Source of the DNA: a virus | Lineage: Duplodnaviria > Heunggongvirae > Uroviricota > Caudoviricetes | DNA: 64,000 bases | Reading direction: 5' to 3' (one strand) | Virus record (IMG/VR): IMGVR_UViG_3300042445_002023 | Part shown: in pieces, positions 10,689 to 46,993 of the stretch | How positions within the stretch are numbered: the first letter of the stretch is position 1 | How the letters are laid out: every line of letters starts with the position of its first letter | Notes under the pieces: model-generated | The model's input: the letters and a program-made list of their open reading frames with translations, nothing else | What the model was told of the DNA's origin: nothing | The model's database searches: none | Made by a program: the position numbers and the translations under genes

Positions 10689-10689
10689 T

Positions 10690-12972: not shown

Positions 12973-12977
12973 AAATT

Positions 12978-13325: not shown

Positions 13326-14218
13326 TGAAAAAACTAATAACCATATTATTTTTACTTTGTGTAAGTTTTGTTACAAACGCACAAATACAAACACCTGATA
13401 CATTACAACTATCACCAAAAGAATTATTTGGAGAAAGTGATGATTGGAACGATGTGGGTATATTACAATCCTATGTTAATTTTTCAAAAGATGTACTTTC
13501 ATCATCAAACCTTTCGGTAGGTGTAATCGGAAAGCAAGTATCTACTACTCTTAATTTAGGATATCATAAATCATCTATGAATGGGCAATGGGGACATTCA
13601 TTTGCAGCATCGATAAACCCTATATGGAACTATTATGGTGTGGGATATGGTTTAAGTAAAAATACTGAAAAAAGAACTACTACAATACAAACATTCTATT
13701 CTACGGATTTTGATTTCCAAAAAGATATTACATTATCATTCATCGATGTATTCAGAACTAAAAAATGGGGAACATTTGGATATAGTGTAATTGCATCAAA
13801 ATCATTTTGGGGAACATACGAAGGCGAGTGGGAAGGAAAATATACAATTGATGAGAATGGTAATTTTAAAGATTTAATATATCCACAAATGCCGGCATCA
13901 AATGAATTGAGTTATAGGGGTATGGTGATGTACACATATACATTGAAAACAAAAAGAGTAAACATCTCCCCACAAATATTCGCAATGAGTGATGTATATA
14001 AAGTATTCAAAGATGGTACTGAATCGGATTTAGCATATGTTGATGATTTCAATTTGGATTTATATTATGGTACATCTATTGATTGGAAAATAACTAAAAA
14101 ATTCATATTGAATACTAATATTAGATATAACACAACTTGGGATAAATTAAGTGAATCAGTTGGATATAAAAAGAGTAACCCAATCCTATTTATGATAGGA
14201 ACAAACTTTCAATTCTAA
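13325..14218 (+). CDS. Secreted putative outer-membrane beta-barrel protein
   Basis: Sec signal ending TNA-Q, alternating aromatic/hydrophobic strands, C-terminal IGTNFQF typical of a BAM beta-signal. Confidence 0.6.
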   Translation: MKKLITILFLLCVSFVTNAQIQTPDTLQLSPKELFGESDDWNDVGILQSYVNFSKDVLSSSNLSVGVIGKQVSTTLNLGYHKSSMNGQWGHSFAASINPIWNYYGVGYGLSKNTEKRTTTIQTFYSTDFDFQKDITLSFIDVFRTKKWGTFGYSVIASKSFWGTYEGEWEGKYTIDENGNFKDLIYPQMPASNELSYRGMVMYTYTLKTKRVNISPQIFAMSDVYKVFKDGTESDLAYVDDFNLDLYYGTSIDWKITKKFILNTNIRYNTTWDKLSESVGYKKSNPILFMIGTNFQF

Positions 14219-14559
14219 TGAAAAAGATAATATTGATATCATTGATTTTATTGGTAGGGTGTACTAAACCAGAACTACCAACCCCAACTCCAACTGTTGA
14301 AAAAATATTTAGTGTCGGTGAAAGTAAAGTAGTAAACGGACAATCTATTTATTTTGATTTACCATCAGCTGGAACATATACACTAACTTTAATTGATAAA
14401 GAAAGTGGACAAGTAGTTAGTAGAGAAAGGTTTATTGGACAGAATGGAGAAAATGTAAAGAAGATTTATACGAATTCAATACAATCTCAATATTTATATT
14501 TGTTATTAGAAGATGTTACTAAAAAAGAAATAAGTAAAACAACAATAATAACCAAATAA
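14218..14559 (+). CDS. Lipoprotein with T9SS C-terminal-domain-like Ig fold
   Basis: Lipobox LVGC; YFDLPSAGTYTLTLID...GQVV. Confidence 0.55.
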   Translation: MKKIILISLILLVGCTKPELPTPTPTVEKIFSVGESKVVNGQSIYFDLPSAGTYTLTLIDKESGQVVSRERFIGQNGENVKKIYTNSIQSQYLYLLLEDVTKKEISKTTIITK

Positions 14560-14570
14560 GGGAAACCCAC

Positions 14571-14942
14571 ATGAAAAAATTAATTTCAATAATTGCATTA
14601 TCAGTACTATTAACAGGTTGTTATAAAGATGATATTATAGAACCAATAAGACCTCAGGCTACTGATGATTTAAAAATAGCTAATGCGGTTGGTATCAAAT
14701 TACAAACACCATTTGTAACATCGGAAGTTGCTATGAATGTAAAAAGTGATGTAGCACAAACTGTAACTATTAAAATTTTTGATATTGCTAATAGAGTAGT
14801 ATCTAAATCTACAAGTGAAGTAAAGGTAGGTGATAATATTTTAAAAGTATACACAAACGCATTACCATCATCTGGATATAGAATAGGATTATTCGATGCA
14901 AGTGGTAAACAATTAGGAATAACGGATTTTAACAAACTATAA
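14571..14942 (+). CDS. Lipoprotein with T9SS C-terminal-domain-like Ig fold
   Basis: Lipobox LTGC; VTIKIFDIANRVV...LPSSGYRIGL...TDFNKL resembles the type-A CTD pattern. Confidence 0.6.
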   Translation: MKKLISIIALSVLLTGCYKDDIIEPIRPQATDDLKIANAVGIKLQTPFVTSEVAMNVKSDVAQTVTIKIFDIANRVVSKSTSEVKVGDNILKVYTNALPSSGYRIGLFDASGKQLGITDFNKL

Positions 14943-14957
14943 ATAGGAGAATTAACA

Positions 14958-15266
14958 ATGGCAGAAGAACAAGAGGAATCAACAGGAAAATCTTTTAAAG
15001 GTATCCTAATTACAGTTGTGAGTACAATATCATTAGGTATTGCAGCATATGTAACAAAAATTATTACGGGTGAAAAAGATGAAACACCGGTACAACAAGC
15101 AGCACCAGTAATCAACATCAATCAAGCAGCACCTCAACAAGTATCAGGCGGTACTAAAACTATAATCATCAATAAGGGTGGAGATGGTAGTGCTAAACCA
15201 GCACCGGCACCAAAACCAAAGAAAAAAGAAGGTGATGAATTTAAAGAAGAGGCACCTAAATGGTAA
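14958..15266 (+). CDS. Single-TM, Pro/Gln-rich hypothetical protein
   Basis: Hydrophobic ILITVVSTISLGIAAYV followed by QQAAP/PAPAPKPK low-complexity sequence. Confidence 0.6.
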   Translation: MAEEQEESTGKSFKGILITVVSTISLGIAAYVTKIITGEKDETPVQQAAPVININQAAPQQVSGGTKTIIINKGGDGSAKPAPAPKPKKKEGDEFKEEAPKW

Positions 15267-15275
15267 CCATTTAAA

Positions 15276-15437
15276 ATGGAACAAGGATTGGGTTTTATAG
15301 TGGTAATTGTATTGTGTACGATAGCTATGTTTGTATTTAATTCTCCATTGATGTTTTTAACATCTTTTATTGGAGGTAGCAGTTATTTAGTAATAAGAAG
15401 TAGAAAAAAAGGTTGGAAATGGCCACATAGGCCGTAA
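15276..15437 (+). CDS. Small membrane protein (53 aa, not in ORF track)
   Basis: MEQGLGFIVVIVLCTIAMFVFNSPLMFLTSFIGGSSYLVIRSRKKGWKWPHRP*; fills the gap between ORFs. Confidence 0.55.
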   Translation: MEQGLGFIVVIVLCTIAMFVFNSPLMFLTSFIGGSSYLVIRSRKKGWKWPHRP

Positions 15438-15460
15438 CTTAAAAAAAGAGAATAAGTAAA

Positions 15461-16084
15461 ATGTCAGAAAATAATCAACCCCCAAGTGGTTTTAAAGATT
15501 TATTAAGTAATATGATGGCCAGAAGATGGTACATCACCGCATTGGTATTGGGTGGATTTATGTTTATTATAGGAGGAATGTTCTTCGCTATATTAAATAA
15601 ATCAGCAATAGAAGGTGAATGGAAAGAACTTCTATTATTGTTATTAGGAGCGTTCATTGGTTCTTATGGTAAAATCATTGACTATTGGTTTAGTGATACT
15701 GATAAAGATAAAATGTTGGTTCAGAAAATGGATGAGGAAGATGGTACGGCAATGAGTAACACTGCTGATATGCCGGTAACTCCGCCAAACAACACACCAA
15801 TCATACCAGAGGCGTTTCAAACCGCTATTGAAAACTCAAAAATAGAAAAGGTAAACGATACGTTTGAACAAGTACCAACTACACAACCAAGAACAGGTAT
15901 TGAAGTGGATGAAGATGGCGATGGTGTAATGGATGGTATAGATTTTGATGGAGATGGTAAAATCGATATGTACTTTGCACATAGACAATGTGAGCACGTA
16001 TGGGGAGATTTAGATGGTGATGGTGAAGAAGAATGTTTAAAATGTGGCAAAATCAGAGATGAAGATGCCGAACAAGTAGGATAA
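15461..16084 (+). CDS. Two-TM holin-like protein with C-terminal DxDxDG Ca-binding loops and possible Zn site
   Basis: Two TM helices ending GKIIDYWFS; DEDGDG, DFDGDG, DLDGDG; CEH...CLKCG. Confidence 0.5.
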   Translation: MSENNQPPSGFKDLLSNMMARRWYITALVLGGFMFIIGGMFFAILNKSAIEGEWKELLLLLLGAFIGSYGKIIDYWFSDTDKDKMLVQKMDEEDGTAMSNTADMPVTPPNNTPIIPEAFQTAIENSKIEKVNDTFEQVPTTQPRTGIEVDEDGDGVMDGIDFDGDGKIDMYFAHRQCEHVWGDLDGDGEEECLKCGKIRDEDAEQVG

Positions 16085-16131
16085 AATAAAGGTTACATAG
16101 TTTCATAATTAAAAAAAAAGGAAAAAAGACT

Positions 16132-16386
16132 ATGGCTAAATTTACTGATATTTTCAAAGATTCAAATGATTTGAATGAGAAAACAATCGTAGGGTTTGCA
16201 TCATTTATTGTAATGACAGCATTTGCAGTTACTGATTTGGTAACTGGGTATTTAGGAAAAGAATTACTTGTAAATGAATTTATTTACAATTCATTTATGT
16301 ACATAACATTAGGTGCTTTTGGTATCGCTGAAGTGGGTAAAATCTTTAATAAAAAAGAAGAACCAAAAGAAGAAGAATTGGGATAA
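16132..16386 (+). CDS. Two-TM small membrane protein (holin-like)
   Basis: Two hydrophobic segments and a charged C-terminus KKEEPKEEELG. Confidence 0.55.
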   Translation: MAKFTDIFKDSNDLNEKTIVGFASFIVMTAFAVTDLVTGYLGKELLVNEFIYNSFMYITLGAFGIAEVGKIFNKKEEPKEEELG

Positions 16387-16390
16387 TTTA

Positions 16391-16418
16391 AAAAGGGAGA
16401 TGATTTCTCCCTTTTTTT
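16391..16418 (+). terminator. Intrinsic terminator
   Basis: AAAAGGGAGA-TGATT-TCTCCCTTTT followed by a T-run. Confidence 0.8.
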
Positions 16419-16444
16419 ATATTTATATAAAAATAAAATACAAT

Positions 16445-17518
16445 ATGGCAAAAGAACAAATCCCTGCAGGTTGGCAAGGTGGGTTTCCATCTGAAAATCA
16501 AAAGCAAATGTTATATCCTACTACGGATTTATCTTCATTACCTATGTTGGGTAATATGGATAACATTAATTTACTACAAAGACAATGGGGTGTTAAATGG
16601 CCAATGTTTAGTTGGAATACCCTAAATGGGGAAAAAGACCCAAAACGTTGTTATGTACAATTTGCTCCTTATATTTCTAGAATAGGATATACTAATGAAG
16701 GTAGAATTTATTCAATAATCTGTCCTCAGCAGGGGATGTGGGTTGGTGATGAAATTTGTATCAATGTTGAAGTAACAGTTACTGGACAAAAAGGGTGGGT
16801 AAATGAAACTACAAAAGAAATAGCCGCAGATATGATGGTTGAGGGAAAAATTTGGCTAACACCAAGTGAACATCAAGGTAGTCATTTAAAAGCAATTTGG
16901 CCATTATTAAAATATAGTGCTCATAAATACCCTATTGACAAAGAAAACGCAATTCGTGTTTCAACCCATTTACCAGGAAATCCTAAACAACCTGTATTTC
17001 AACTTGGAAAAGGTTTATCTTCAAGATTTAAAAATCCACAATTTGCTATAAAAGAAGAAGCATTTACAACAGGACATATCAATGTAGAAATAGGAGGAAT
17101 AGTTCCTACAAACGATGCCAAACTAGATAAGTTCAATCAATATTTTTTAGATATTTTTAACTTAGCTACTGGTAATATGCTACAAAAGGGTAATGTATTA
17201 TCGTGGAACTTATTTTTTGATTCACCTGAATTAGTTTCAGTTTCTGAATGGCAAAATCACGCTGATTATTGGCGTACTTCTATAAACGCTCATCATGGTT
17301 CTCCAGATGGTGAGGGAACAAGTCCAAGATATTTTGATGGAACATATTTTGACACTAAAAATTTCGCTATTAAAGAGGTTATTAAAGAAATTTTAAATCA
17401 CGTAGTAAAAAACCCCACATTGAGAAAGGGTTTAATATTATTTGTAGAATATTGTCCTAAAACAATTTTGGATATATTTTTAAAAAAAAGTAAACAACCT
17501 AAAACAAATACACAATAA
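16445..17518 (+). CDS. Hypothetical protein (357 aa)
   Basis: Long ORF; start moved to ATG 16445, after the terminator and TATTTATA motif. Confidence 0.7.
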   Translation: MAKEQIPAGWQGGFPSENQKQMLYPTTDLSSLPMLGNMDNINLLQRQWGVKWPMFSWNTLNGEKDPKRCYVQFAPYISRIGYTNEGRIYSIICPQQGMWVGDEICINVEVTVTGQKGWVNETTKEIAADMMVEGKIWLTPSEHQGSHLKAIWPLLKYSAHKYPIDKENAIRVSTHLPGNPKQPVFQLGKGLSSRFKNPQFAIKEEAFTTGHINVEIGGIVPTNDAKLDKFNQYFLDIFNLATGNMLQKGNVLSWNLFFDSPELVSVSEWQNHADYWRTSINAHHGSPDGEGTSPRYFDGTYFDTKNFAIKEVIKEILNHVVKNPTLRKGLILFVEYCPKTILDIFLKKSKQPKTNTQ

Positions 17519-17521
17519 ACT

Positions 17522-17764
17522 ATGGAAGACGAATTAATAGGAATCATTAAATTATTCGGTGGAAACTTTATTCCACGAGGATATATGGAATGTAATGGAC
17601 AATTACTACCAATAAATCAATATCAAGCGGTGTATTCAATACTTGGTAATACATATGGTGGTAATTATCAATCAATGACATTTGCTCTACCTAAATTAAC
17701 CCCTCCCAATGAGAATATGAAATATATTATGTGTGTGGAAGGTGTATACCCATCAAGACAATAA
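17522..17764 (+). CDS. Phage tail collar domain protein
   Basis: IGIIKLFGGNFIPRGYMECNGQLLPINQYQAVYSILGNTYGG...FALPKL. Confidence 0.85.
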   Translation: MEDELIGIIKLFGGNFIPRGYMECNGQLLPINQYQAVYSILGNTYGGNYQSMTFALPKLTPPNENMKYIMCVEGVYPSRQ

Positions 17765-17768
17765 TACT

Positions 17769-18512
17769 ATGACAAAAGAAGAAATATTATACAATGTTGG
17801 TTTAACTGAAAAAGTTTATTCCGAACAAAAAGACATCGATTTTAAATCATTGGGTTTAAAATTAGTTAAGTGGATTGAGGATAAAAAATCCGATACTCAG
17901 GGATTCGTTGCAACAAAAGATAAATCAATTTATATTGTTTGGAGAGGCAGTTCATCTAAAAAGGATTTCCAAAATGATGCATCAATTGATAAAGTTCCTT
18001 TCATTGAAGAAGGTGAAAAAGTTCATATTGGATTCAAATCATCGTGGGAAGCAGTTAAAGATAAAACATATCAGGCGTTAGATGTTGCACTTAAAAACTT
18101 AGGTCAAGAACATTCAATAGATAATATTATTGTGTGTGGTCATAGTTTGGGTGCTGCAGTTTCAACCTTATCTGCATATGAGATTTATTCGATTTACAAA
18201 TCAAATAAAATTATATGCTGTACCATTGGTAGTCCAAGAGTTGGAAATAAAATATTTAAACAAAACTTTGATAAATCACCGATAGAATCCCTAAGAATAG
18301 TTCATAATTTAGATGTTGTTACTCGTGCACCAAATATTGGATATCATCATGTTAATACCGAATTAAGGATTGATGATGAGGGTAATGTTAAAAAATGGAT
18401 GGTTGATTGGAAAAGAGTAGGTGATTACCTTAAAGCAGTTTTCACTGGTCAGACAGTTAAAGACCATATGACAAGTAATTATATAAGTGCATTAAATAAA
18501 TGGAATCCATAA
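17769..18512 (+). CDS. Lipase class 3 (alpha/beta hydrolase)
   Basis: WRGSSS, VHIGF, GHSLGAA, GSPRVGN, VHNLDVV, DH. Confidence 0.9.
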   Translation: MTKEEILYNVGLTEKVYSEQKDIDFKSLGLKLVKWIEDKKSDTQGFVATKDKSIYIVWRGSSSKKDFQNDASIDKVPFIEEGEKVHIGFKSSWEAVKDKTYQALDVALKNLGQEHSIDNIIVCGHSLGAAVSTLSAYEIYSIYKSNKIICCTIGSPRVGNKIFKQNFDKSPIESLRIVHNLDVVTRAPNIGYHHVNTELRIDDEGNVKKWMVDWKRVGDYLKAVFTGQTVKDHMTSNYISALNKWNP

Positions 18513-18521
18513 AAAAAATAT

Positions 18522-19241
18522 ATGAAACAATTATTAGTATTTTTGCTTGGTGTTTTACTAAGCAATGTTGCCATTGCCCAAACTGTGGGAACAACGAAGA
18601 CCGAAAATTACAAAGCAAGTTTCGAAACAAAAGTAGACATTAGTCAATTCTTAGATTATGAAGGTAAACAAATCCCAATACAGATTCTCAAATGTGGTAT
18701 TGGTGATGAAGTTTATGAGCAGTATCCTGAACTCAAAGAAAAGAAAGTGGGTTTGGGTGTGGCTAATATCACGATGGAATATTTGGAGAATCTTAACAGG
18801 TTTACGTTTACGGAGGATAAGACAGAAATTAAGAACCGCATGGTAAAGCAGTTTCAAGCTTCTCAATCTGGTATTTCGCAAGATAAGTTAGATGGCAGAG
18901 GAAAAATTAGATTAGCACATTATTTTGTAGAAATTGAAGTGTATGATTTTTCAGTATCCGAAGATGAGACAGTAAATTTAAGTAATGGTGTTAAGAATAA
19001 AGTAGTAACTCGTTTGGGTTTACAAGTTCGTTTCACAAATGCAGAGACAGGAGAAATTATAGCAGCAAGTGGATTGGGTGAAGCGGTTACAACAAGAGAA
19101 TTATCACTCCTTTCAGATGCAACTGTGGATGAGGTTAAATTCAACCAATCAACCATTGGAACATCTACAAAGAAAGCATTGGATATAGCATGTGCAAGAA
19201 TATTAGGTAGAATGATTAAAAAGGGTGTGTTCGAAAAATAA
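18522..19241 (+). CDS. CsgG/HfaB-family secreted protein
   Basis: Sec signal; RFTFTED...; LQVRFTNAETGEIIAASG pattern of CsgG-like proteins. Confidence 0.7.
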   Translation: MKQLLVFLLGVLLSNVAIAQTVGTTKTENYKASFETKVDISQFLDYEGKQIPIQILKCGIGDEVYEQYPELKEKKVGLGVANITMEYLENLNRFTFTEDKTEIKNRMVKQFQASQSGISQDKLDGRGKIRLAHYFVEIEVYDFSVSEDETVNLSNGVKNKVVTRLGLQVRFTNAETGEIIAASGLGEAVTTRELSLLSDATVDEVKFNQSTIGTSTKKALDIACARILGRMIKKGVFEK

Positions 19242-19261
19242 AATCGATAATATTTAATAGT

Positions 19262-19963
19262 ATGATAAAGTTAAAGAAAATATTAAACGAAGCAACTGCA
19301 TCTGATATTATAAAAGATTTAGATAAGGTAAGACATGAGTTAATTAAAAAAGTAGATGTCTTAATTGCTAAAAAGAAAAAACTTTATTCTAATATGGATA
19401 TAGAATCCCCAATGAGTGCGGATGAAAAACAATTAGATAAAGATATACAAAGTATATTCTCACAAATACAACAAATAATTCAACAAAAAAGAAGTATTAA
19501 AGAAGGTGTAGAAACTGATACAATAGAGTGTGCAGAATGTGGTTGGGATTGGGATTTAGAAGATGGCGGTGAAGAACCATATGTTTGTCATAAATGTGGA
19601 TACGATAATTCAGATGAGTACGATGAATTGGATGTAGAGGATGATGATGAGGAGGATTTCTTAAATTACTTAAAAGGATATAAAACCGAACTAAAAGAAG
19701 CAAATTGTAATTGTGTTTATGAAGCAGAATACAAAGGTAGAGAAGTTAAGTTAGGCAAACCAATGCAAGGTGATGTTAAGAAGTTTAAAGTATATGTAAA
19801 GAATCCTAAGACAGGTAAAGTTATTAAAGTAAACTTTGGTCAAAAGGGAATGGTAATTAAGAAAGATAATCCTGCTGCTAGAAAATCATTTAGAGCAAGA
19901 ATGAATTGTGATTCACCGGGGCCAAGAACAAAAGCAAATTATTGGTCTTGTAGAAAGTGGTAA
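19262..19963 (+). CDS. Phage protein with Zn-ribbon and DUF6321-like C-terminal domain
   Basis: CAECGW...CHKCG; KKFKVYVKNPKTGKVIKVNFG...RKSFRARMNC...ANYWSC. Confidence 0.7.
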   Translation: MIKLKKILNEATASDIIKDLDKVRHELIKKVDVLIAKKKKLYSNMDIESPMSADEKQLDKDIQSIFSQIQQIIQQKRSIKEGVETDTIECAECGWDWDLEDGGEEPYVCHKCGYDNSDEYDELDVEDDDEEDFLNYLKGYKTELKEANCNCVYEAEYKGREVKLGKPMQGDVKKFKVYVKNPKTGKVIKVNFGQKGMVIKKDNPAARKSFRARMNCDSPGPRTKANYWSCRKW

Positions 19964-20045
19964 TATGATAATAATTTGTTAATATTGAATTAACCTATTA
20001 AAAGAAGCGAGAGCATAATTATTGAGGAACTAACTTAAATAATTT

Positions 20046-22526
20046 ATGGCCCGTTTCTTTTTTATTTTGTTACTATTTCCATTTGTAGCGTTTTCTCAAA
20101 CCTCCCAATTAAGTGGAGAAACAAAATCCAAAACCGAAAAAATATATTTTTCACATATTACATTTGAAGATGTGAATGGTAATAAGTTTTCTACAATTTC
20201 TAATGAAAACGCTGAATACAAAATCAATCTAAAATTAGGTGTATATAAAATCAAAGCATCTTATGTTGGTTATACTACCTATACAACACAAATAAACTTA
20301 ATATCAGATACTACATTTGATATTATATTGTTGGATGATACAAAGCAATTATCAGAAGTCGTTGTTAGAGCAGCAAATCAAAAAGTAACTGATGTAGCAG
20401 TAGTTAGAACAATCCGAAATAGTAATGTAGTATCCGATGGAGTATCCATAGAATTCATTAAAAAAACACCTGATAGAAATGTTGGTGATGCTCTTAAAAG
20501 AGTAAGTGGTGTAACAATCCAAAACGATAAGTTTGTATTAGTAAGAGGATTGGCGGATAGATACAATTCAGCTATCTTAAACAAAACCCTACTACCATCA
20601 ACCGAACCTGATAGGAGAGCATTTTCATTTGATATAATTCCAACAGCATTAATTGATAATATTATAGTTGCTAAATCAGCATCGGCAAATCAGCCAGGTG
20701 ATTGGAGTGGTGGATTGGTTCAGATTACAACAAAAGAAGTTTCTGATAACTTTTTTAATATCTCATTGGGAAGTGGTTGGGGTTTAGTTTCAACTTTAAA
20801 GGATTTTAAGTTAGTTCAAGCTACTGAATTCCCTTCCACATTCCCATCTACATACGGATACCGTGTTAGTAGTAATGGTGATAAAAGATTATACACAAAG
20901 CAATTCAGTAATCCAATAGTAGATGGGTTTACTTCATCCCCAAACTTAAATGGTGGATTATCATTTGGTGTAAAGAAAAACAAATTCAACGCTCTATTCA
21001 GTTCAACCCTTAGAAACACATATGGAATAAATTACATAGATAGAATCGATTACCAATCCTCAACCGAATTAGCATACGATTATAGAGATACATTGTATAC
21101 AAAAAGATTTTCCGCAAATGGTTTATTGAATTTAACTTATTTAGGTGAGAACCGATATAGTTGGAAAACATTAGTGAACTATCAAACGGATGATTCTTAT
21201 ATGAATAGAAATGGTGAGAACTATGATAATGTTCAGAATGTTCATAGTAATTCATCTAACCACATAAATAATATTGTAGTTAATTCTCAATTCGATGGTA
21301 AACTTAAAACATGGGATTTTAATTTAGGGTATAATTTAATTTTAAGAGAACAACCTGATTATAGAGTTAATCCAATTACAAAATCATTAGGAGTAAACGA
21401 ACCATATACTACGGCGTGGAGAGATACATATCGTTTTTGGAGTGTGATGGATGAAAACTCTTTTAGTGGTAACATTAACAAATCATTTGGTGATATTAAG
21501 ATTGGTGGTGGCTACTTAAAAAAGATTAGAGGATTTAATGCAAGAATATTCCGTTATCTTTCAACTGATATGTTAGATGAGATAACAAACAATACAGACA
21601 AATACACTGCTGATTTTGATTTAGGTAGTGGGTATGTAATGTGGGATAAAGAATTTGGTTTATGGAAATTAAATACAGGTGTTAGAACCGAATATAATTT
21701 ATTTGGTGTATCTACTGCAGATTTTAGTGGAAGTAAAGTTAAAGTTAATAGAGAGTATTTAGATGTATTACCATCTCTAAATCTTTCATACAATTTAGAA
21801 AAAATAAAGTATAGATTTTCATTAAGTAAAACATTAGCAAGACCGGAGTTTAGAGAAGTTGCTAATTTTGCTTATTATGATTTTGTAAGAAATGCACAAT
21901 TATTGGGTAATCCTAAATTAGAAAAATCTGACATATATAATTTAGATTTGAAATGGGAATTATATCCAAAAGCAGGAGAGAATATTTCAGTATCCCTATT
22001 TGGTAAGAACTTCATAAAACCAATTGAACAAGTAGTAGCAGATGGGTCAGTTCCATCTAACTTATTATTAACTTACGCAAACCCTGATAACGCGTATCTT
22101 TATGGTGTTGAATTAGAATTTCGTAAAAAGGTAACTGAATGGTTTGATTTTTATACAAACGCTTCGGTAATGAATTCGGAAGTAAACGTGAAAGGAGTTA
22201 AAAGACAATTACAAGGACAATCAAATTATGTATTAAATGGTGGGGTTAATATCCACAAAAACAAAAACACACTTAACGTAACTTACAATAGAGTAGGCGA
22301 TAGAATATCAGCAATAGGATTTCAAGGTTATCCAGACATTTTTGAAAATAGTAGAGATGTATTGGATGTGACCCTTTTACATAAATTAAATAAAGGTGAA
22401 ATAAAATTGGCAATAGGTGATTTGTTTGGCCAACAATCAATCTATTATCAAAAATTACAAAACCGAAATTTGATAAAAACAAACAATGAACAAACAATTT
22501 CTTTAACATTAAATTTAACATTATGA
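20046..22526 (+). CDS. TonB-dependent receptor (Bacteroidota type)
   Basis: Sec signal, N-terminal CarboxypepD-like domain, LSEVVV TonB-box region, plug motif DALKRVSGVT...VRGLADRYN, barrel motifs LARPEF and GNPKL. Confidence 0.9.
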   Translation: MARFFFILLLFPFVAFSQTSQLSGETKSKTEKIYFSHITFEDVNGNKFSTISNENAEYKINLKLGVYKIKASYVGYTTYTTQINLISDTTFDIILLDDTKQLSEVVVRAANQKVTDVAVVRTIRNSNVVSDGVSIEFIKKTPDRNVGDALKRVSGVTIQNDKFVLVRGLADRYNSAILNKTLLPSTEPDRRAFSFDIIPTALIDNIIVAKSASANQPGDWSGGLVQITTKEVSDNFFNISLGSGWGLVSTLKDFKLVQATEFPSTFPSTYGYRVSSNGDKRLYTKQFSNPIVDGFTSSPNLNGGLSFGVKKNKFNALFSSTLRNTYGINYIDRIDYQSSTELAYDYRDTLYTKRFSANGLLNLTYLGENRYSWKTLVNYQTDDSYMNRNGENYDNVQNVHSNSSNHINNIVVNSQFDGKLKTWDFNLGYNLILREQPDYRVNPITKSLGVNEPYTTAWRDTYRFWSVMDENSFSGNINKSFGDIKIGGGYLKKIRGFNARIFRYLSTDMLDEITNNTDKYTADFDLGSGYVMWDKEFGLWKLNTGVRTEYNLFGVSTADFSGSKVKVNREYLDVLPSLNLSYNLEKIKYRFSLSKTLARPEFREVANFAYYDFVRNAQLLGNPKLEKSDIYNLDLKWELYPKAGENISVSLFGKNFIKPIEQVVADGSVPSNLLLTYANPDNAYLYGVELEFRKKVTEWFDFYTNASVMNSEVNVKGVKRQLQGQSNYVLNGGVNIHKNKNTLNVTYNRVGDRISAIGFQGYPDIFENSRDVLDVTLLHKLNKGEIKLAIGDLFGQQSIYYQKLQNRNLIKTNNEQTISLTLNLTL

Positions 22527-23725
22527 AAAAATTATTAGGTATTATTTTGGTATTAGGATTATTCAGTTGCCAAAAAGAATTAGGTGGTGATATAACTCCT
22601 ATCAATGTTCCAACTTCAACAACTTTGAGTGGTAACATTAACACAACAACAACTTTGACATCAGACAAAGTATGGACATTAAAAGGATATGTTTATGTAA
22701 CTGATGGTGCTAAACTTATTATCCAACCGGGTACAACAATTATTTCTGATATTGCAGAGAAAGGTGCATTAATTATTGAAAGAGGTGCACAACTTTTAGC
22801 AGAAGGAACTTCGGCAAAACCAATTGTATTTACATCAGGCAAAGCAGTAGGTGAAAGAACTCCTGGTGATTGGGGTGGTGTGGTATTATTAGGTAGGGCA
22901 ACTACTAATAGAACTTCCGAACCAACTATTGAAGGTGGTATTGGTAGACCATATGGTGGCACTAACGATATAGATAATAGTGGTATTCTAAAATATGTAA
23001 GAATTGAATACGCTGGTATCGCAGCAATGCCAAACTCTGAAATCAACGCCCTAACATTGGGTGGTGTTGGTAGTGGAACAATCATTGAGAATGTTCAAAC
23101 TATTTACGCTAACGATGATGCATTTGAATTCTTTGGTGGAACTGTAAATGCAAAGAACTTATACGCTTATGCAACTGCGGATGATGATTACGATTTTGAT
23201 TTTGGATATAGAGGTTCAGTATCTTATTCAGTATCAAAGAGAGACCCATTATTTGTAGATGCCGGTGATGCTGGAAATGGTGTAGAGTGTGATAATGATG
23301 GAACAGGTACATCTGCACAACCATTCACACATCCTAAATTAGATAATATGATTTTAGTTGGACCATTTGATGTAACCGCATTAGCAAACCACAATTTAGG
23401 TTTAAGATGGAGGAGAGCAACTCAATTCACAATTACTAACTCAAAGATTGTTGGATATCAAAAAGGTGGATTCTCAATGGAAAGTAATGAAACTGCACAG
23501 GCATATAAAGATGGTGTAAGTAAGTTCCAAAATAATGAGATTCAGGCGTATGAACCATTATTAAACTTCAAATCAACATCAACTATATTTACTGCAGCTG
23601 ATATGAAGGTAAAAGCTTTATCAGAGGGTAACAAACAAGTATCTTATACAAAAGCTGAAATGGAAATATTATCCAAACCAATATGGATTAGTGGTTGGAC
23701 TAGATTCCCAACAAAAGGTAATTAA
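22523..23725 (+). CDS. Lipoprotein with beta-helix-like repeats, partner of the TBDR
   Basis: Lipobox LFSC; LKGYVYV...GALIIERGAQLLAEGT...PIVFTS; WGGVVLLG; DDAFEFFGG; DDDYDFDFGY. Overlaps the TBDR stop (ATGA). Confidence 0.8.
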   Translation: MKKLLGIILVLGLFSCQKELGGDITPINVPTSTTLSGNINTTTTLTSDKVWTLKGYVYVTDGAKLIIQPGTTIISDIAEKGALIIERGAQLLAEGTSAKPIVFTSGKAVGERTPGDWGGVVLLGRATTNRTSEPTIEGGIGRPYGGTNDIDNSGILKYVRIEYAGIAAMPNSEINALTLGGVGSGTIIENVQTIYANDDAFEFFGGTVNAKNLYAYATADDDYDFDFGYRGSVSYSVSKRDPLFVDAGDAGNGVECDNDGTGTSAQPFTHPKLDNMILVGPFDVTALANHNLGLRWRRATQFTITNSKIVGYQKGGFSMESNETAQAYKDGVSKFQNNEIQAYEPLLNFKSTSTIFTAADMKVKALSEGNKQVSYTKAEMEILSKPIWISGWTRFPTKGN

Positions 23726-23729
23726 TATC

Positions 23730-23757
23730 AAAAGGGAGATTTATTCTCCCTTTTTTT
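23730..23757 (+). terminator. Intrinsic terminator
   Basis: AAAAGGGAGA-TTTAT-TCTCCCTTTT plus T-run; stem identical to the one at 16391. Confidence 0.8.
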
Positions 23758-23769
23758 ATATTTATACAT

Positions 23770-24003
23770 ATGATATATAAGGTTATAGATGTGCCGGTAA
23801 ACGACCCATGTGAAGAATGCATTTCATGTATGAGGCTTAAATTAATGGAAATTGGATTCGTGAGTGGACAGGACATTGAGATACAAAAAAAACAATGGGG
23901 GTTATATGTTATCAATCTGGTTTCAAAACAAGGACACGTTGAACAAACTATAGCATTAAGAGAAGAAGAATTTAATCGAATTTGTTTAAAAGAAAAAAAT
24001 TAA
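23770..24003 (+). CDS. FeoA-domain (SH3-like) protein
   Basis: RLKLMEIGFVSGQDIEI...IALREEEFNRI. Confidence 0.7.
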   Translation: MIYKVIDVPVNDPCEECISCMRLKLMEIGFVSGQDIEIQKKQWGLYVINLVSKQGHVEQTIALREEEFNRICLKEKN

Positions 24004-24066
24004 TATTAATAATTTAATAATACATAAGTCCCCCAATAAAAATGGGGATTTTTTATTTATACCTAT

Positions 24067-24786
24067 ATGCTAAAAGAAATACTTACTATCGTTATACCTT
24101 GTAAAAATGAAGGTATTAACATTTACGATTGTTTAGGTTTAATTTGTAAACAATCTGATATAGAAGGAACTAATGTAGTAATTGCAGATAGTTCCGATGA
24201 TGCGGATTCACTTTATTGGTTAAGCAGGGCAAGAATCGATTTTGGGTTCTCCATAGTAATTCATACCATCAATGGTGGATATCCTGCTAAAGCCCGTCTA
24301 AATGGTTCACAATTGGTAAAAACACCATACGTTCTATTCTTAGATGCGGATGTGATGTTAAGAAATAAAAATCTATTAAAAAATATATGGGAAACTTCAC
24401 TTGCATATTACGAAGTAGATTTAGTAACAACTCCATTTCAGACAGAAAAGGGATGGAATTGGGTTTTCCGTATTTTTGATAAATTTCAAAGATTGAGCAC
24501 ATTATTAGGTACACCATTTGCAGTAGGAGGATTTCAGATATTTAATACCAAAACCTATTGGGAGATTGGTGGATATAATCCCGAAGAATTATTTGCAGAA
24601 GATTACTCACTTTCATCTAAAATAAATCCAAAGAAATTTTGGATTCATAAAACAAAAGGAGTGTGGACATCTGCAAGGCGATTTAAAAATAAAGGAGTAT
24701 TATGGATGTTTAAGATAATGATACTAAGTTATATAAACCGAAATAATCCTAACTTCTTTAAACACCACCACAACTATTGGACATGA
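24067..24786 (+). CDS. Glycosyltransferase family 2
   Basis: TIVIPCKNE, VIADSS, ARLNG, LFLDAD, GGY...AEDY, TSARRF. Confidence 0.9.
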   Translation: MLKEILTIVIPCKNEGINIYDCLGLICKQSDIEGTNVVIADSSDDADSLYWLSRARIDFGFSIVIHTINGGYPAKARLNGSQLVKTPYVLFLDADVMLRNKNLLKNIWETSLAYYEVDLVTTPFQTEKGWNWVFRIFDKFQRLSTLLGTPFAVGGFQIFNTKTYWEIGGYNPEELFAEDYSLSSKINPKKFWIHKTKGVWTSARRFKNKGVLWMFKIMILSYINRNNPNFFKHHHNYWT

Positions 24787-25499
24787 AATATCAAGCAATC
24801 ATAGTATCAGATTTACACTTAGGTATAAAAGATTCTAAAACTGATGAATTCATAGAATTTATAGAATCACATCCTACGGAATTATTAATTCTTAATGGAG
24901 ATATAATTGATGGTTGGGCATTGAATAGAGGTTCTAAATGGAGAAAATCGCATACCAAAGTAATCAGTAAGTTATTAAAGATTTCTAATAAAACTCGTAT
25001 TATTTGGATTAGAGGAAACCACGATGAATTTATTCAAGAATTTATGAATAATCACATTGGGTCAATTGAAATAAGAGAGGATTATATCCTAAATGTGAAC
25101 GAAAAAAAATACTATTGTTTTCATGGAGATGTCATCGATGTATTCATTACAAAATATAAATGGTTATCAAAGATAGGTGCAGTGGGATATGATTTTGCAC
25201 TTTGGTTAAATAGAGTTTACAACACATATCGTAAGTGGAGAAAACTACCTTACATATCCATCTCACAAAAGATTAAAAATTCAGTTAAGGTTGCAACAAA
25301 TTATGTAAATGATTTTGAAACCACCGCATTATCAATGGCAACTAAAAAAGGATGTGATGGAGTTATATGTGGGCATATCCATCAACCAGAAGACAGAATG
25401 ATAAACGATAAGAGATATTTAAATAGTGGTGATTGGATTGAGAATATGAGTGCAATTTGTGTTGATGGAAATGGAATGTTATATTTATATAAAAGATAG
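24783..25499 (+). CDS. Calcineurin-like metallophosphoesterase of the PlcP/LpxH2 type (putative phospholipase C)
   Basis: SDLHLG, NGDIIDGW, GNHD, HGD, amphipathic lid region, CGHIH, NSGDWIE. Confidence 0.85.
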   Translation: MKYQAIIVSDLHLGIKDSKTDEFIEFIESHPTELLILNGDIIDGWALNRGSKWRKSHTKVISKLLKISNKTRIIWIRGNHDEFIQEFMNNHIGSIEIREDYILNVNEKKYYCFHGDVIDVFITKYKWLSKIGAVGYDFALWLNRVYNTYRKWRKLPYISISQKIKNSVKVATNYVNDFETTALSMATKKGCDGVICGHIHQPEDRMINDKRYLNSGDWIENMSAICVDGNGMLYLYKR

Positions 25500-25503
25500 T
25501 CCT

Positions 25504-26331
25504 ATGAAAAGTATAATAACCTTATTGGTATTATTACCAACGTTAGCATTTTCACAAGTATCAACTTGGAGACAAAGTGGTGGAAGTGTTCCGGCATCAT
25601 CACAAATATCACAATCAACTCAAACAAGAGTTCAACCATCTGTACCACAACAAAATAATGTGAGTAGCTGGAGAAACAATCCACCAGAAACATCTAAACC
25701 AAACTATAATATAATTGCACGACCAAACAATTGGCGATGGGGTGGTAATAATTGGGGTTGGCAATGGAATAATTGGGGATGGTATCAACCAATGCCTTAC
25801 ATTTGGTATGATGATTACGGATGGAGACAAAGAAGTGTAATTCATGTATACGAAAGTGGTAAAAGAGATACTATTAGAAAAGAAAGAGTTTATACCTCAT
25901 TTGGATTTGGGCATACTACTAATAAACAAGCAGCATTTTGGGGAATCGTTGGTGGTAAAAAATCATATTTCATTATGGATTATGTAATGACTTATGCAAT
26001 AGACCAAAACCAATACTATCCATATGGTCAAATTAATAATGTTGACTTTCCACTTAGTAAAGAAGATTGGAAAAAAGAATCAACTTTATATGTAGGTGGT
26101 GGTAAACGAATTGGTAAAATAGGTATACATGGTATGATAGGATTTGGTAATGAAGTTATCAGATGGCAAGGTAAAGATGACTTAGGTGGTATCTCATTTC
26201 CAAAATCAAATTCCTCATTCACTACATTTAAAGTTGGTGTTATAAAAGATTTCAAATTCGTTACATTAAAATTAGAAACTGACCCAATTAGAGGGTATTC
26301 TCAAATTTCAATCGGATTGAATAATAAGTAA
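25504..26331 (+). CDS. Secreted protein with Gln/Asn/Trp-rich N-terminus and beta-stranded C-terminal domain
   Basis: Sec signal ending AFS-Q; NNWRWGGNNWGWQWNNWGWY; alternating beta-strands to the C-terminus. Confidence 0.55.
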   Translation: MKSIITLLVLLPTLAFSQVSTWRQSGGSVPASSQISQSTQTRVQPSVPQQNNVSSWRNNPPETSKPNYNIIARPNNWRWGGNNWGWQWNNWGWYQPMPYIWYDDYGWRQRSVIHVYESGKRDTIRKERVYTSFGFGHTTNKQAAFWGIVGGKKSYFIMDYVMTYAIDQNQYYPYGQINNVDFPLSKEDWKKESTLYVGGGKRIGKIGIHGMIGFGNEVIRWQGKDDLGGISFPKSNSSFTTFKVGVIKDFKFVTLKLETDPIRGYSQISIGLNNK

Positions 26332-27854
26332 TGAAAAAATGGGTAGTAAACTTTATAATAATTTGTATTGTTCTATTTGCACAAAAAGTAAATGGTCAAG
26401 TATTCACGCAATCATTTGTAGATAAATGTACTGGTGAAATAAAAATTGCAACCACAACTTATGTAAGAGGTAATGCAGTGGTTTCATTTTATAATCAAGT
26501 TCGAACATTCACTCCCCTTGAAGTACAAAGTGGTATATTAAATGCATGGTTACAAACTACCTATTTGGCATATTCCACATTAGGGTGTCCAACTAATGTA
26601 GTAGTTCAACAAACTGTCCAACAAGCAGTAACTCAGGCTGCAGCACAAGCAGCAGCCGCAGCAGCATCCGCCGCCGCACAAGCAGCAGCAGATGCAGCAG
26701 CAAAAGCAGCATCGGATGCAGCAGCAAAAGCAGCAGCAGATGCAGCAGCAAAAGCAGCAAGTTCATCCGCGAGTGGTGCCGCATCATCATCCGCTTCTTC
26801 GGCAGCAACCTCATCTGCAACAGCAGCAACTTCATCAGTAGCAACTCCACCACCAACATCAACACCTCCACCTGCAAGTAGTAGTTCAACACCTCCACCT
26901 GCAAGTAGTTCTTCATCATCAAGTAGTGGTGGGTCTTCATCAAGTTCATCATCATCTGGCTCATCTACGGAGAGTAAGACCGAAACTAAAACTGAAGCTA
27001 AAACAGAATCGAAAACCGAAGAAAAGAAAACCGAAACTAAATCAGAGGAAAAGAAAGAGGAAACTAAGTCTGAAAGTAAAGAAGAGAAAAAAGAGGAAAG
27101 TAAATCGGAAGAAAAGAAAGAAGAAAAAAAGGAAGAAAAGAAAGAAGAAAAAAAGGAAGAGAAAAAAGAGGAAAAGAAAGAAAAGAAAAAAACTGCAGTT
27201 ACAAATCCAATGATGTTATCATCTGATTTAGCAGGAACTGAATCCGCAGATGGTGAATACGCAGTAATGATGTCAGTAGGTGTATCTAAATCATCTCTAA
27301 TGGGTGATAAATCATATTCCAGCTCTGCATTAATATGGTCTACATTTGACCAATTTGCACTATCATCAGGAGTTACTAAAATGGTAATAGCAGATGGTAA
27401 ATTAAAAGCACTTAATAGTTACTCATTAACATCTGCATATCTTAAAGGTACGTTGATGGGATTAATGGGATATACATGGATTAAACCACACCCAACATTG
27501 GGTACATTTGGATATAACTTAGGTGCAATTATGTTAATGATGAAAGGTACTGAAATGAAATACAATACATCATTCTCAACCTCAGTAGTGGTATTTTGGA
27601 CTAAACCATATCAATACTCAAGAAAACTTACGATTTCACCTCAGATATTTGTAATGTCAGCACCTATTGCTTATAATTCACTAACAGGTGGAACATCCGT
27701 AAGTAGAACACCTGGTGCTTTATTAGGAACTGCTATTGATTATAGAATTAGTAAAAGATTTGGATTTAACTTTGGATATAAAGCAAATATAGCGTTTGAA
27801 CCAGAATTCAGTTTGTTGCATAATTTCCAAATTGGTTCTAAAATGACATTCTAA
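26331..27854 (+). CDS. Secreted protein with Ala/Ser/Pro and Lys/Glu low-complexity stalk and C-terminal putative beta-barrel
   Basis: Sec signal; AAA/SSS/EEKK repeats; beta-strands ending FQIGSKMTF. Confidence 0.6.
   Translation: MKKWVVNFIIICIVLFAQKVNGQVFTQSFVDKCTGEIKIATTTYVRGNAVVSFYNQVRTFTPLEVQSGILNAWLQTTYLAYSTLGCPTNVVVQQTVQQAVTQAAAQAAAAAASAAAQAAADAAAKAASDAAAKAAADAAAKAASSSASGAASSSASSAATSSATAATSSVATPPPTSTPPPASSSSTPPPASSSSSSSSGGSSSSSSSSGSSTESKTETKTEAKTESKTEEKKTETKSEEKKEETKSESKEEKKEESKSEEKKEEKKEEKKEEKKEEKKEEKKEKKKTAVTNPMMLSSDLAGTESADGEYAVMMSVGVSKSSLMGDKSYSSSALIWSTFDQFALSSGVTKMVIADGKLKALNSYSLTSAYLKGTLMGLMGYTWIKPHPTLGTFGYNLGAIMLMMKGTEMKYNTSFSTSVVVFWTKPYQYSRKLTISPQIFVMSAPIAYNSLTGGTSVSRTPGALLGTAIDYRISKRFGFNFGYKANIAFEPEFSLLHNFQIGSKMTF
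26630..27190 (+). repeat. Coding low-complexity repeats (GCA-rich tract, 23-bp direct duplication, GAA/AAA tract)
   Basis: CAACACCTCCACCTGCAAGTAGT at 26860-26882 and 26887-26909; tandem gcagcagcaaaa and aaagaagaaaa units. Confidence 0.8.
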
Positions 27855-28532: not shown

Positions 28533-28567
28533 TTCAATATTTATTGATATATTAAAATAATAGAAGT

Positions 28568-46922: not shown

Positions 46923-46993
46923 ATTTGGAAATACCGATTTTTATTAGTAGTTTAGCTTTGTAATAATTGATAACACTAAAACATAAACATATG
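46923..46993 (+). promoter_or_regulatory. Repeated promoter-like element, copy 2, with leader
   Basis: ATTTGGAAAT-N14-GTAGTTTAGCTTTGTAATAATTGATAACACTAAAACATAAACATATG. Confidence 0.7.

Follow-up and report, generated by a model that had tools for sequence, protein, structure and literature searches.

Why would a phage carry a complete outer-membrane transporter together with a lipoprotein partner, and what would bring the two genes into play during infection? The question is raised by a two-gene locus in the window, i.e., the whole 64,000-nucleotide stretch of viral DNA analyzed here (IMG/VR record IMGVR_UViG_3300042445_002023), whose source is likely a jumbo phage of freshwater Bacteroidota with Aquirufa or its relatives as the host lineage. 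The answer that we consider probable, with appreciable room for others, is that the pair is a phosphorus-scavenging auxiliary cassette of a jumbo phage, switched on by the host regulator PhoB. The locus and its terminators comprise:

20046..22526, + strand: TonB-dependent transporter (TBDT), 826 aa (Pfam Plug and OMP_b-brl_3, fold matches, dN/dS)
22523..23725, + strand: predicted surface lipoprotein, the "lid", 400 aa, right-handed beta-helix, PF28492 Beta_helix_4 (PF28492 on the listed homologues, model, lipobox)
23730..23754, + strand: intrinsic terminator ending the pair, AAAAGGGAGA-N5-TCTCCCTTTT (pattern search)
16390..16416, + strand: twin terminator, sharing the GGGAGA/TCTCCC stem and the TTTATATTTATA that follows it (pattern search)

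Both open reading frames proved intact, as the original prediction had it, and they overlap as ATGA, the TGA stop of the transporter sharing its letters with the ATG of the lipoprotein, an arrangement retained in 12 of the 12 phages checked. The prediction had also pointed to a second terminator with an identical stem, and the pattern was indeed found at just these two sites, with 0.02 expected by chance.

The transporter presents a signal peptide at aa 1-17 (MARFFFILLLFPFVAFS, cleaved before Q), a CarboxypepD_reg-like domain at about aa 19-98, a TonB-box-like LSEVVV at aa 102-107, the Plug and a beta-barrel that runs to aa 826. Pfam recognizes CarbopepD_reg_2, Plug (PF07715, 31.7 bits, above the 23.9-bit cut-off) and OMP_b-brl_3 (E 4.5e-26), while the best NCBIfam match is TIGR01782 (E 3e-54, under the model's own cut-off) and the NCBIfam SusC model gives no match. 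With the transporter model as query, Foldseek retrieved 163 TBDT chains at E <= 1e-3, FhuA and FecA at about 1e-13 among them, and all of the matches listed are TBDTs. About 22 barrel strands can be counted in the AF2 model, which is weak (pLDDT 56.6, about 23 in the plug; shallow alignment); the barrel reaches a pLDDT of 83 when modelled in complex with the lid. A sequence search against solved structures returned just a weak plug match to Cir (E 5e-5) for the transporter and no match for the lid.

The plug region is the best-conserved portion of the transporter and the N-terminal 100 or so residues are the most variable among phage copies, the TonB-box consensus xLxEVVV being retained in 58 phage and bacterial sequences in a motif-level comparison. 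No TonB_C domain exists in four related phage genomes, so that the phage transporter would depend on a host TonB accepting the phage TonB box. The C-terminal residue is Leu (..NLTL, ..NLNL) in 12 of 12 phage transporters checked and Phe in the Aquirufa copies; an aromatic residue at the end of the barrel-assembly signal is usual, though not strictly defining, in such barrels, and the Leu counts against the phosphorus-importer reading. Both genes evolve under purifying selection, with dN/dS of 0.03-0.25 at dS 0.1-1.2 (0.05-0.23 for the transporter).

The lipoprotein carries the lipobox LGLFS-C, with Cys16 invariant, followed by QKELGGD, and the pattern C-x-K-(D/E)-L-G-G is common to the phage lipoproteins. 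Charged residues after the lipobox Cys are typical of surface export in Bacteroidota, and surface exposure of the protein is accordingly predicted from its sequence. PF28492 is precomputed on 120 of the 120 lipoprotein homologues listed, the Atlas clusters of the protein are named Beta_helix_4 (score 0.98), and the AF2 model (pLDDT 74) is a beta-helix of the pectin-lyase type; Pfam finds no SusD domain. Since the Foldseek matches of the lid are weak (E >= 2e-3, TM 0.2-0.3), all of them to beta-helix proteins, no enzyme class can be assigned to it.

The modelling of the two proteins together, which the original prediction had suggested as a check, yielded an interface with ipSAE values of 0.77, 0.71 and 0.72 over three runs (median 0.72), the best control giving 0.00; of the solved complexes, 58 of 80 attain the mark used, as against 2 of 110 mismatched pairs. 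At least 90% of the contacts agree across the three runs, and the partner has a pLDDT of at least 88. On the transporter side, the contacts of the model (residues 269-277, 336-341, 395-397, 443-462, 503-515, 559-563, 607-620, 665-676 and 760-762) sit on long loops that alternate with short turns, i.e., on the extracellular face. The lid is therefore predicted, by this model, to cap the extracellular loops of the phage's own barrel. Conserved lid residues are not enriched at the predicted interface when compared by hand (12 of 54 at the interface, 94 of 293 overall), which places the invariant acidic clusters DDAFEFFGG, ADDDxDFDFGY and ECDND elsewhere on the lid helix.

Far from being a rare stray gene, the pair forms a cassette that a large group of phages conserves. 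It occurs in the same order in at least 147 IMG/VR phage contigs from many samples, at 63-99% identity, and in 80 of 80 phage loci the transporter gene is succeeded by that of the lipoprotein whenever the contig extends that far, with flanks that vary. Related genomes of 171-326 kb encode terminase and tail sheath, and one complete genome of 171 kb has terminal repeats; the window itself encodes an endolysin and PHROG families, none of which corresponds to the transporter or the lipoprotein. The comparison of codon usage with phage genes, also proposed beforehand, gave a GC3 of 0.195 for the transporter and 0.182 for the lipoprotein against a phage mean of 0.187. Altogether, these data bear out the claim that the pair has been assimilated into a phage genome. 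Misassembly of host DNA into the viral contig, for which nothing speaks beyond the bacterial ancestry of the genes, is excluded and keeps practically no probability: the GC3 is that of the phage, the contigs carrying the pair are independent and include the terminally redundant one, and the closest cellular copies, those of Aquirufa, are 63% and 73% identical to the window proteins, far from the near-identity to a host locus named at the outset as the refuting case. As to the rarity of such receptors in phages, the claim stands for deposited phages, among whose 50,697 records 5 weak matches came up, megablast and blastn finding nothing, and fails for this phage group.

In turn, the bacterial relatives place the pair in a phosphate setting. 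They exist in at least 593 Bacteroidota species, and in nearly all of 80 bacterial loci the lid gene comes next after the TBDT gene, in the same orientation. In Aquirufa the order is pair, AP-superfamily enzyme, PHO4, PHO4 and OprP, and in Chitinophaga it is PHO4 and a PhoU-like gene, then an esterase, the pair and a histidine kinase with an OmpR/PhoB-type regulator. Of the 80 loci, 19 have PHO4, 18 the kinase and 16 a PhoU-like gene, the neighbours of the pair being PHO4, PhoU-like, phoBR-like, OprP and phosphatase genes; the bacterial loci examined yielded no glycoside hydrolases, PUL genes or iron genes.

By domain architecture and gene context, the pair matches the Pi-starvation-induced Fjoh_0545/0546 (BT4055/4056, ElpS) type, the link to Fjoh_0546, BT4056 and ElpS being drawn through a shared Pfam family, architecture, context and the statements of the papers themselves. 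In Flavobacterium johnsoniae, Fjoh_0545 (TBDT) and Fjoh_0546 (lipoprotein "FII") belong to the phoBR operon, called "PUSIV", and Pi depletion raises both by 8-10 log2-fold (Lidbury et al., 2021, PMC8115612). The window transporter has the identical Pfam set (PF07715, PF13715, PF14905), a pectin-lyase-fold lipoprotein is likewise encoded directly downstream of it, and the phosphate setting is shared, with OprP, phoBR, a glycosyltransferase and a PlcP-type esterase in the same response. Compared by description, the window pair differs in residing on a lytic-type jumbo phage, in its ATGA overlap, in its phage codon usage and in a transporter ending in Leu. The BT4055/BT4056 lid family of Bacteroides thetaiotaomicron, related to Fjoh_0546 and ElpS, shows gene proximity in 621 genera (Price and Arkin, 2023, bioRxiv 10.1101/2023.03.17.533168) and likewise joins a non-SusC transporter to a pectin-lyase-superfamily lipoprotein predicted on the outer face; the study obtained few high-confidence contacts for BT4055-BT4056, whereas the phage pair reaches 0.72 against 0.00 in controls, and it reported no phage-borne copy. 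ElpS (CC0170) of Caulobacter crescentus is a Pi-starvation-induced surface lipoprotein encoded beside a TBDR (Le Blastier et al., 2010, PMC2996285); in the literature it is tied to the family by way of BT4056 and the FI-FIII lipoproteins of F. johnsoniae. The likeness, again by description, lies in a surface-anchored lipoprotein gene adjoining a TBDR gene and in phosphate starvation, but ElpS is released by a T2SS-dependent protease and linked to phosphatase activity, and the phage pair has no accompanying T2SS.

The original prediction had left unnoticed the region ahead of the transporter gene, an 82-nt spacer that holds:

19968..20000, + strand: Pho-box-like array of three 11-bp units, ATAATAATTTG, TTAATATTGAA and TTAACCTATTA (PWM score, conservation)
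20016..20024, + strand: TAATTATTG, putatively assigned as a -7-like promoter element (column conservation, spacing)

With a PWM trained on bacterial loci from which Aquirufa was left out, the array is the top + strand site of the 64 kb window (15.7, the runner-up scoring 6.0), with an empirical p of 0.0008 per 120-nt segment; the score is not above the genome-wide maximum of shuffled sequence (mean 15.1), and what gives the site weight is where it lies, on which strand, and how well it is conserved. Indeed, two of the boxes have TAA cores that do not vary among 22 diverse phages, and these cores together with the -7-like element (TA..TAT invariant, the following T at least 90% conserved) are the only invariant or near-invariant columns of the upstream regions. 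Of 32 distinct phage upstream regions, 21 exceed the 99th percentile of the background, a count that does not represent 21 independent events since the regions are mutually homologous. Counted from where the last box begins, the -7-like element lies at 30 nt, which puts it in 11-bp phase with the bacterial loci, where the distance is 19 or 30 nt. As a recurrent phage promoter the -7-like motif was ruled out, with 5 matches against 4.35 expected.

In bacteria, TAA(C/T) boxes at 11-bp spacing also precede the pair, in chains of at least three in 23 of 29 loci with a called start, and the same motif stands ahead of a PHO4 gene and of esterase genes, the Pho-box-like sites of the latter lying directly upstream in L097, L145 and L164. 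From its sequence and placement, the array would stand in the place of a -33 element as Pho boxes, with PhoB as the putative binding protein in Bacteroidota, for which we found no published demonstration of binding to such boxes; PMC10976474 cautions against relying on Pho boxes predicted in phages.

A precedent comes from cyanophages, whose pstS and phoA are under host PhoBR control (Zeng and Chisholm, 2012, as cited in PMC10976474), so that through the Pho boxes the host regulator reports phosphate stress to the phage. There too, host-derived phosphorus-acquisition genes stand on a phage behind Pho boxes, and the TTAAC core of the window, where regulation is predicted, is similar to the cyanobacterial box PyTTAAPyPy(T/A). 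The products differ: a periplasmic binding protein and a phosphatase in cyanophages, a TonB-dependent outer-membrane transporter and a surface lid in the Bacteroidota phage.

Since the phage pair lies behind the same promoter type as the bacterial Pho-regulon pair, it would most likely be activated by host PhoB, which would turn it on when the infected cell is phosphate-starved. Transporter and lid would then enter the host outer membrane via the host Sec, Lol and BAM machinery, the lid capping the extracellular face of the transporter and host TonB powering it, and the added capture of a phosphorus-containing substrate would help to replicate a genome larger than 200 kb. By keeping the apparent phosphate switch of the host, the phage copy probably keeps the infected cell scavenging phosphorus. 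The nutrient uptake proposed in the original prediction is thus the favoured reading, narrowed to phosphorus under a host-type Pho promoter; on the remodelling of the receptor landscape, which it had offered as the other option, the data speak neither for nor against.

Some readings of the locus turn on its downstream neighbours:

23770..24003, + strand: FeoA-like ORF, 77 aa (Pfam FeoA, E 9e-4, 19.7 bits, under the 23-bit cut-off)
24067..24786, + strand: family-2 glycosyltransferase (Pfam)
24777..25499, + strand: metallophosphoesterase, overlapping the glycosyltransferase (Pfam)

The last two are Pho-type companions in a subset of phages: they come after the lipoprotein in L012, L030, L049, L062 and L064 (in L010 the glycosyltransferase alone is visible before the contig ends), and the phage esterase is 37-41% identical, with one partial match at 54%, to esterases of pair-containing bacterial Pho loci. 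The FeoA-like ORF, which adjoins the pair, could suggest iron or siderophore uptake, as could one automatic JGI name ("receptor protein involved in Fe transport") and the siderophore receptors among the best fold matches, though these would be found for any TBDT. It is a strain-specific insert outside the conserved pair, present in L001 only among 80 phage loci and followed by a terminator of its own (24031-24047); with the bacterial loci examined devoid of iron genes, an iron cargo is hardly credible. A SusC-like carbohydrate importer seems only slightly less far-fetched. TIGR01782 belongs to a subfamily that includes sugar transporters, and pectin-lyase folds such as that of the lid often bind glycans. 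Moreover, the TBDR of the megaphages Mar_Mega_1 and LR745206, also very large phages predicted to infect Bacteroidota, has been read in print as a "SusC" carbohydrate importer (Michniewski et al., 2021, PMC9723777); it was described with no lid, Pho context or promoter, and that of LR745206 is just 26.7% identical to the window transporter, which itself has neither a SusD-like partner nor a SusC-family match; the bacterial loci examined show no glycoside hydrolase or PUL genes.

More deserving of attention, and still improbable in our view, is superinfection exclusion or receptor replacement, in which transporter and lid would mask or replace a host transporter used as phage receptor, much as the Llp protein of phage T5 blocks FhuA. 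TBDTs are common phage receptors, the cassette stands among many other exported envelope genes, the variable N-terminal portion could be read in the same sense, and Aquirufa carries either a native-type or a phage-type pair at one and the same locus. Against this, strong purifying selection maintains both genes as an intact transporter, plug and TonB-box motif included; there is also a conserved Pho-type promoter, the predicted binding partner of the lid is the barrel of the phage itself, and no receptor is known for these phages. The least unlikely of the alternatives, which we nonetheless hold to be rather improbable, is non-phosphorus import or surface remodelling within a phage envelope module, the TAA repeats being an AT-rich promoter feature unrelated to PhoB. 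It draws on the lipase, CsgG-like and barrel-protein genes nearby, on the genome-wide significance that the array score lacks and on the literature, which has established no substrate for the bacterial family. Opposed to it are the bacterial orthologues, which lie amid phosphate genes and not those of other nutrients, the occurrence of the same motif ahead of PHO4 and esterase genes, and the Pi induction published for the same architecture (PMC8115612).

Phosphorus scavenging under host PhoB would carry beyond this locus. Phage phosphorus-acquisition genes have so far come mainly from marine cyanophages (pstS, phoA). With this cassette, the principle would reach heterotrophic freshwater Bacteroidota as well as the outer membrane, and it would take in an energy-coupled TonB-dependent transporter that has a lid of its own. 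Where phosphorus limits a lake, the extra importers of infected cells could shift who obtains it. Furthermore, the bacterial family (ElpS, BT4056, Fjoh_0546), which spans hundreds of genera, ranks with the most strongly phosphate-induced ones; the phage copies offer material for finding its substrate, with natural variants by the thousand, a compact operon and an interface predicted with confidence.

Regarding the direction of transfer, free trees put Aquirufa inside or beside one phage subgroup, and in AU tests the hypothesis of one phage clade is not rejected (lipoprotein p 0.36, transporter p 0.53); as the tests are compatible with such a clade, no direction is claimed. It is conceivable, on a distinctly tentative footing, that jumbo phages are not only users but also reservoir and vector of the cassette, the phage-type pair having replaced the native pair at the same site in Aquirufa esocilacus, spread to a second, more distant host lineage and stayed wired to host PhoB. 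If true, a working nutrient importer would have passed from phage to host, and a TonB-dependent outer-membrane transporter would for the first time be seen to act as a regulated auxiliary gene of a phage.

The cassette is embedded in a 20-kb stretch rich in other exported envelope proteins, with lipase, CsgG-like and barrel proteins among the products encoded near it, a setting that also fits a surface-remodelling role.

The transporter gene and the lipoprotein gene form a compact unit, in which the stop of the former and the start of the latter overlap as ATGA:

20046-22526, + strand, transporter ORF (ORF call), 826 aa
22523-23725, + strand, lipoprotein ORF (ORF call), 400 aa

The transporter starts with the signal peptide MARFFFILLLFPFVAFS, followed by Q, and carries the Pfam domains CarbopepD_reg_2, Plug and OMP_b-brl_3; it also hits the TonB-Xanth-Caul receptor model with an E of 3e-54, under that model's cut-off. 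The lipoprotein has the lipobox LGLFS preceding C, then QKELGGD, and gave no match in the copies of Pfam, NCBIfam and PHROGs searched. The window has two copies of a hairpin, AAAAGGGAGA-N5-TCTCCCTTTT with TTTATATTTATA behind it, one at 16390 and one at 23730 (expected, 0.02). Since the ORFs, the overlap, the signal peptide and lipobox, and the twin hairpin all check out, the original prediction described the locus correctly: a full-length TonB-dependent receptor coupled through ATGA to a lipoprotein partner, with the coordinates and lengths it gave and a terminator whose stem recurs at about 16390.

The window encodes an endolysin (phrog_181, E 5.5e-72) and holds several phage-only families. 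Relatives of the transporter, 63-99% identical, exist on at least 147 IMG/VR contigs of up to 326 kb; of four of these records that were searched, three, rated complete, encode a tail sheath and a large terminase, and one, of 171 kb, has direct terminal repeats. The lipoprotein gene lies 3′ of the transporter gene in all 80 phage loci kept, wherever the contig continues, and the ATGA overlap is retained in 12 of 12 phages checked; the flanking genes vary between the 80 loci. The assimilation to the phage genome that had been proposed is in line with codon usage, the GC3 of the transporter (0.195) and lipoprotein (0.182) genes matching that of 43 other window genes (0.187 +/- 0.047) and differing from that of the nearest bacterial copies (0.31-0.35). 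Furthermore, phage-phage comparisons yield a dN/dS of 0.03-0.25 at a dS of 0.1-1.2 for both genes. The pair is a conserved cassette under selection. Misassembly or recent capture is excluded by the conserved order in relatives, the phage-like GC3 and the purifying dN/dS. As for the presumed rarity of such receptors in phages, it holds for deposited genomes, where five weak matches include the 635-kb megaphage LR745206 (26.7% identity), and fails for this phage group, given the number of IMG/VR contigs with relatives.

In bacteria, the lipoprotein occurs in at least 593 species (species-representative genomes), almost all Bacteroidota among those listed, and the transporter gene is immediately 5′ of its gene in nearly all of the 80 bacterial loci kept. 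The pair is surrounded by phosphate genes. The Aquirufa esocilacus locus runs from the pair to an alkaline-phosphatase-superfamily enzyme, two PHO4 phosphate transporters in succession and an OprP-type phosphate porin. In that of Chitinophaga pinensis, the pair has a metallophosphoesterase before it, a histidine kinase and an OmpR/PhoB-type regulator after it, and a divergent PHO4-PhoU-like operon upstream. Over the 80 loci, many of them short contigs, tblastn found PHO4 in 19, the kinase in 18, the PhoU-like gene in 16 and the esterase in 8. This context matches published work. The phoBR operon of Flavobacterium johnsoniae holds Fjoh_0545, a transporter, and Fjoh_0546 ("FII"), a pectin-lyase-fold lipoprotein, both induced 8-10 log2-fold on phosphate depletion (PMC8115612); Fjoh_0545 has the same three Pfam domains as the phage transporter. 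BT4055/BT4056 has been described as a transporter-lid pair whose gene proximity is kept in 621 genera, the BT4056 lid being 40% identical to Fjoh_0546 and related to Caulobacter ElpS (Price and Arkin, bioRxiv 10.1101/2023.03.17.533168), which is in turn starvation-induced (PMC2996285). By family, architecture and context, the phage pair would belong with these systems. The bacterial transporter-lid family is thus already known; in the literature searched, phage TonB-dependent receptors are mentioned only as SusC-type sugar importers (PMC9723777), and no description of a phage-borne pair of the Fjoh_0545/0546 type was found.

In 23 of the 29 bacterial loci with a called start, the transporter gene is preceded by three to five NTAA(C/T) cores, chained with a spacing of exactly 11 bp; a TTTG -7 element follows the last box, in most cases at a distance of 19 or 30 nt. 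A weight matrix trained on the loci outside the Aquirufa clade gives high scores upstream of other genes too, namely Aquirufa's second PHO4 gene and the esterase genes of three other bacterial loci (L097, L145, L164). Because its sites precede PHO4 and esterase genes as well, this supports the array as the Pho box of these Bacteroidota, to which PhoB would bind; its core is similar to that of the cyanobacterial box PyTTAAPyPy(T/A) (PMC10976474). The same matrix points to one site before the phage pair:

19968-20000, + strand, Pho-box-like array, matrix score 15.7, within the 82-nt spacer before the transporter gene

It is the top coding-strand site of the 64 kb (runner-up 6.0). The empirical p is 0.0008 for a 120-nt segment, and against shuffled sequence the score has no genome-wide significance. 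Among distinct phage upstream regions, which share ancestry and are not independent, 21 of 32 score above the background 99th percentile. When 22 diverse phages are aligned, full or nearly full conservation is confined to the columns of two TAA box cores and of TAnnTATTG, which lies 30 or 41 nt past the point where the last scored box begins, a spacing that keeps the bacterial 11-bp phase. It must be considered that cyanophage Pho-box predictions have proved unreliable (PMC10976474). By motif count, TAnnTATTG is not a recurrent phage promoter; the -7-like word found before the transporter gene is present again, as ATATTTATTG, at 28537-28546, 22-31 nt 5′ of an ATG at 28568. The top Pho-box-like score of the window, 19.0, falls at 48756-48788 on the - strand, antisense within ORF 46967-49084, and is probably due to chance, because shuffles reach 19.6.

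Under phosphate starvation of the host, its PhoB~P would switch on the phage operon via the Pho boxes. The transporter and lid would be delivered by Sec, Lol and BAM of the host and powered by its TonB; four related phage genomes encode no TonB of their own. A phosphorus compound captured by the additional importer-lid complexes would then feed the synthesis of a genome exceeding 200 kb. In this model, regulation, membrane assembly and cargo are the proposed steps, whereas intact genes, phage residence, selection, fold, bacterial context and the promoter motif are what the analysis demonstrates. The idea of a phage phosphorus gene under host PhoB is already known from cyanophage pstS, which this model resembles.

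The transporter model is weak (pLDDT 56.6); the modelled barrel has 163 matches among solved chains at E<=1e-3, TonB-dependent transporters throughout among the matches listed, and a TonB-box-like LSEVVV upstream of the plug is conserved across phage and bacterial copies. The lipoprotein is a member of Pfam PF28492, Beta_helix_4 (pectate-lyase-like). It was modelled (pLDDT 74) as a right-handed beta-helix, with weak fold matches to beta-helix proteins only. The proposed partnership is supported by complex prediction: with transporter residues 120-826, lipoprotein residues 30-322 and 58-row alignments, an interface was predicted at ipSAE 0.77, 0.71 and 0.72 (median 0.72; best of three controls, 0.00), with at least 90% contact agreement between runs and a partner pLDDT of at least 88. 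In the benchmark, 58 of 80 solved complexes attained this ipSAE mark, as did 2 of 110 mismatched pairs; these counts are only roughly valid here, because the runs used our own alignments. The models support binding of the lipoprotein to the transporter. The contact residues of the latter lie in long barrel loops alternating with turns of 2-4 residues, which places them on the extracellular face, and the lipoprotein is therefore predicted to be a lid over the transporter. Three acidic clusters of the lid, DDAFEFFGG (198-206), ADDDxDFDFGY (220-228) and ECDND (255-259), are invariant in 58 phage and bacterial lids and fall outside the predicted barrel interface; they could form a metal-binding or catalytic groove. 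At the transporter C-terminus, all 12 phages checked have Leu (..NLTL, ..NLNL, ..NYNL), the Aquirufa copies (among bacterial loci L089-L091) have Phe (..NYNF), and the last residue of most other bacterial transporters checked is not Leu. A non-aromatic final residue is unusual for a barrel-assembly signal.

Around the pair, the window contains several further genes:

17733-18512, Lipase_3 gene
23770-24047, FeoA-like ORF of 77 aa with its own terminator (Pfam FeoA E 9e-4, below cut-off)
24067-25499, overlapping genes for a family-2 glycosyltransferase and a metallophosphoesterase

The FeoA-like ORF separates the lid gene from the glycosyltransferase and metallophosphoesterase genes and, since it is confined to L001 among the 80 phage loci, is a recent, strain-specific insert unrelated to the pair. 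The glycosyltransferase and metallophosphoesterase genes are also 3′ of the lid gene in five phage loci (L012, L030, L049, L062, L064), and the L010 contig breaks off with only the glycosyltransferase gene visible. The metallophosphoesterase is 37-41% identical (54% in one partial match) to esterases of Chitinophagaceae and other bacterial Pho loci, and Pho-box-like sites precede some of those esterase genes. Both genes recall the lipid-remodelling arm of the phosphate response (PMC8115612), and by analogy they may constitute that arm of the same response. Other exported or envelope-type genes lie within about 20 kb of the pair (8365-19963, 25450-27854), including, besides the lipase, lectin/cohesin-like, CsgG-like and barrel-like proteins, none of which accompanies the pair in most relatives.

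With regard to origin, phage and Aquirufa-type copies group in a single clade whose stem is long (SH-aLRT 100; 0.5 and 1.3 changes per site), and Aquirufa adjoins the same phage subgroup (L048, L049, L057, L065) in both gene trees; a single phage clade was not rejected by AU tests (p 0.36 and 0.53). On both sides of the pair, the Aquirufa-like MAG L158 and A. esocilacus are collinear, at 74-95% identity; at the same site, between an MFS gene and the AP-superfamily gene, their pairs (L158:4813-8909 vs L089:5462-9209) match only in fragments of 45-55% identity, and the L158 pair has just 31% and 47% identity with the phage pair. The phage-type pair is shared, at 88-91% identity, by a more distant MAG, L091, in which the next gene reaches only 67%. 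These allele patterns, independent of the trees, argue that the cassette moved horizontally among hosts, and it appears to have been replaced at one chromosomal site in Aquirufa-type genomes. Phages are an obvious candidate vehicle for this movement. Moreover, three phage loci (L060, L039, L072) are grouped differently in the two trees, L060 falling with L057 for the transporter and with L039 for the lid, which suggests recombination between phages inside the cassette.
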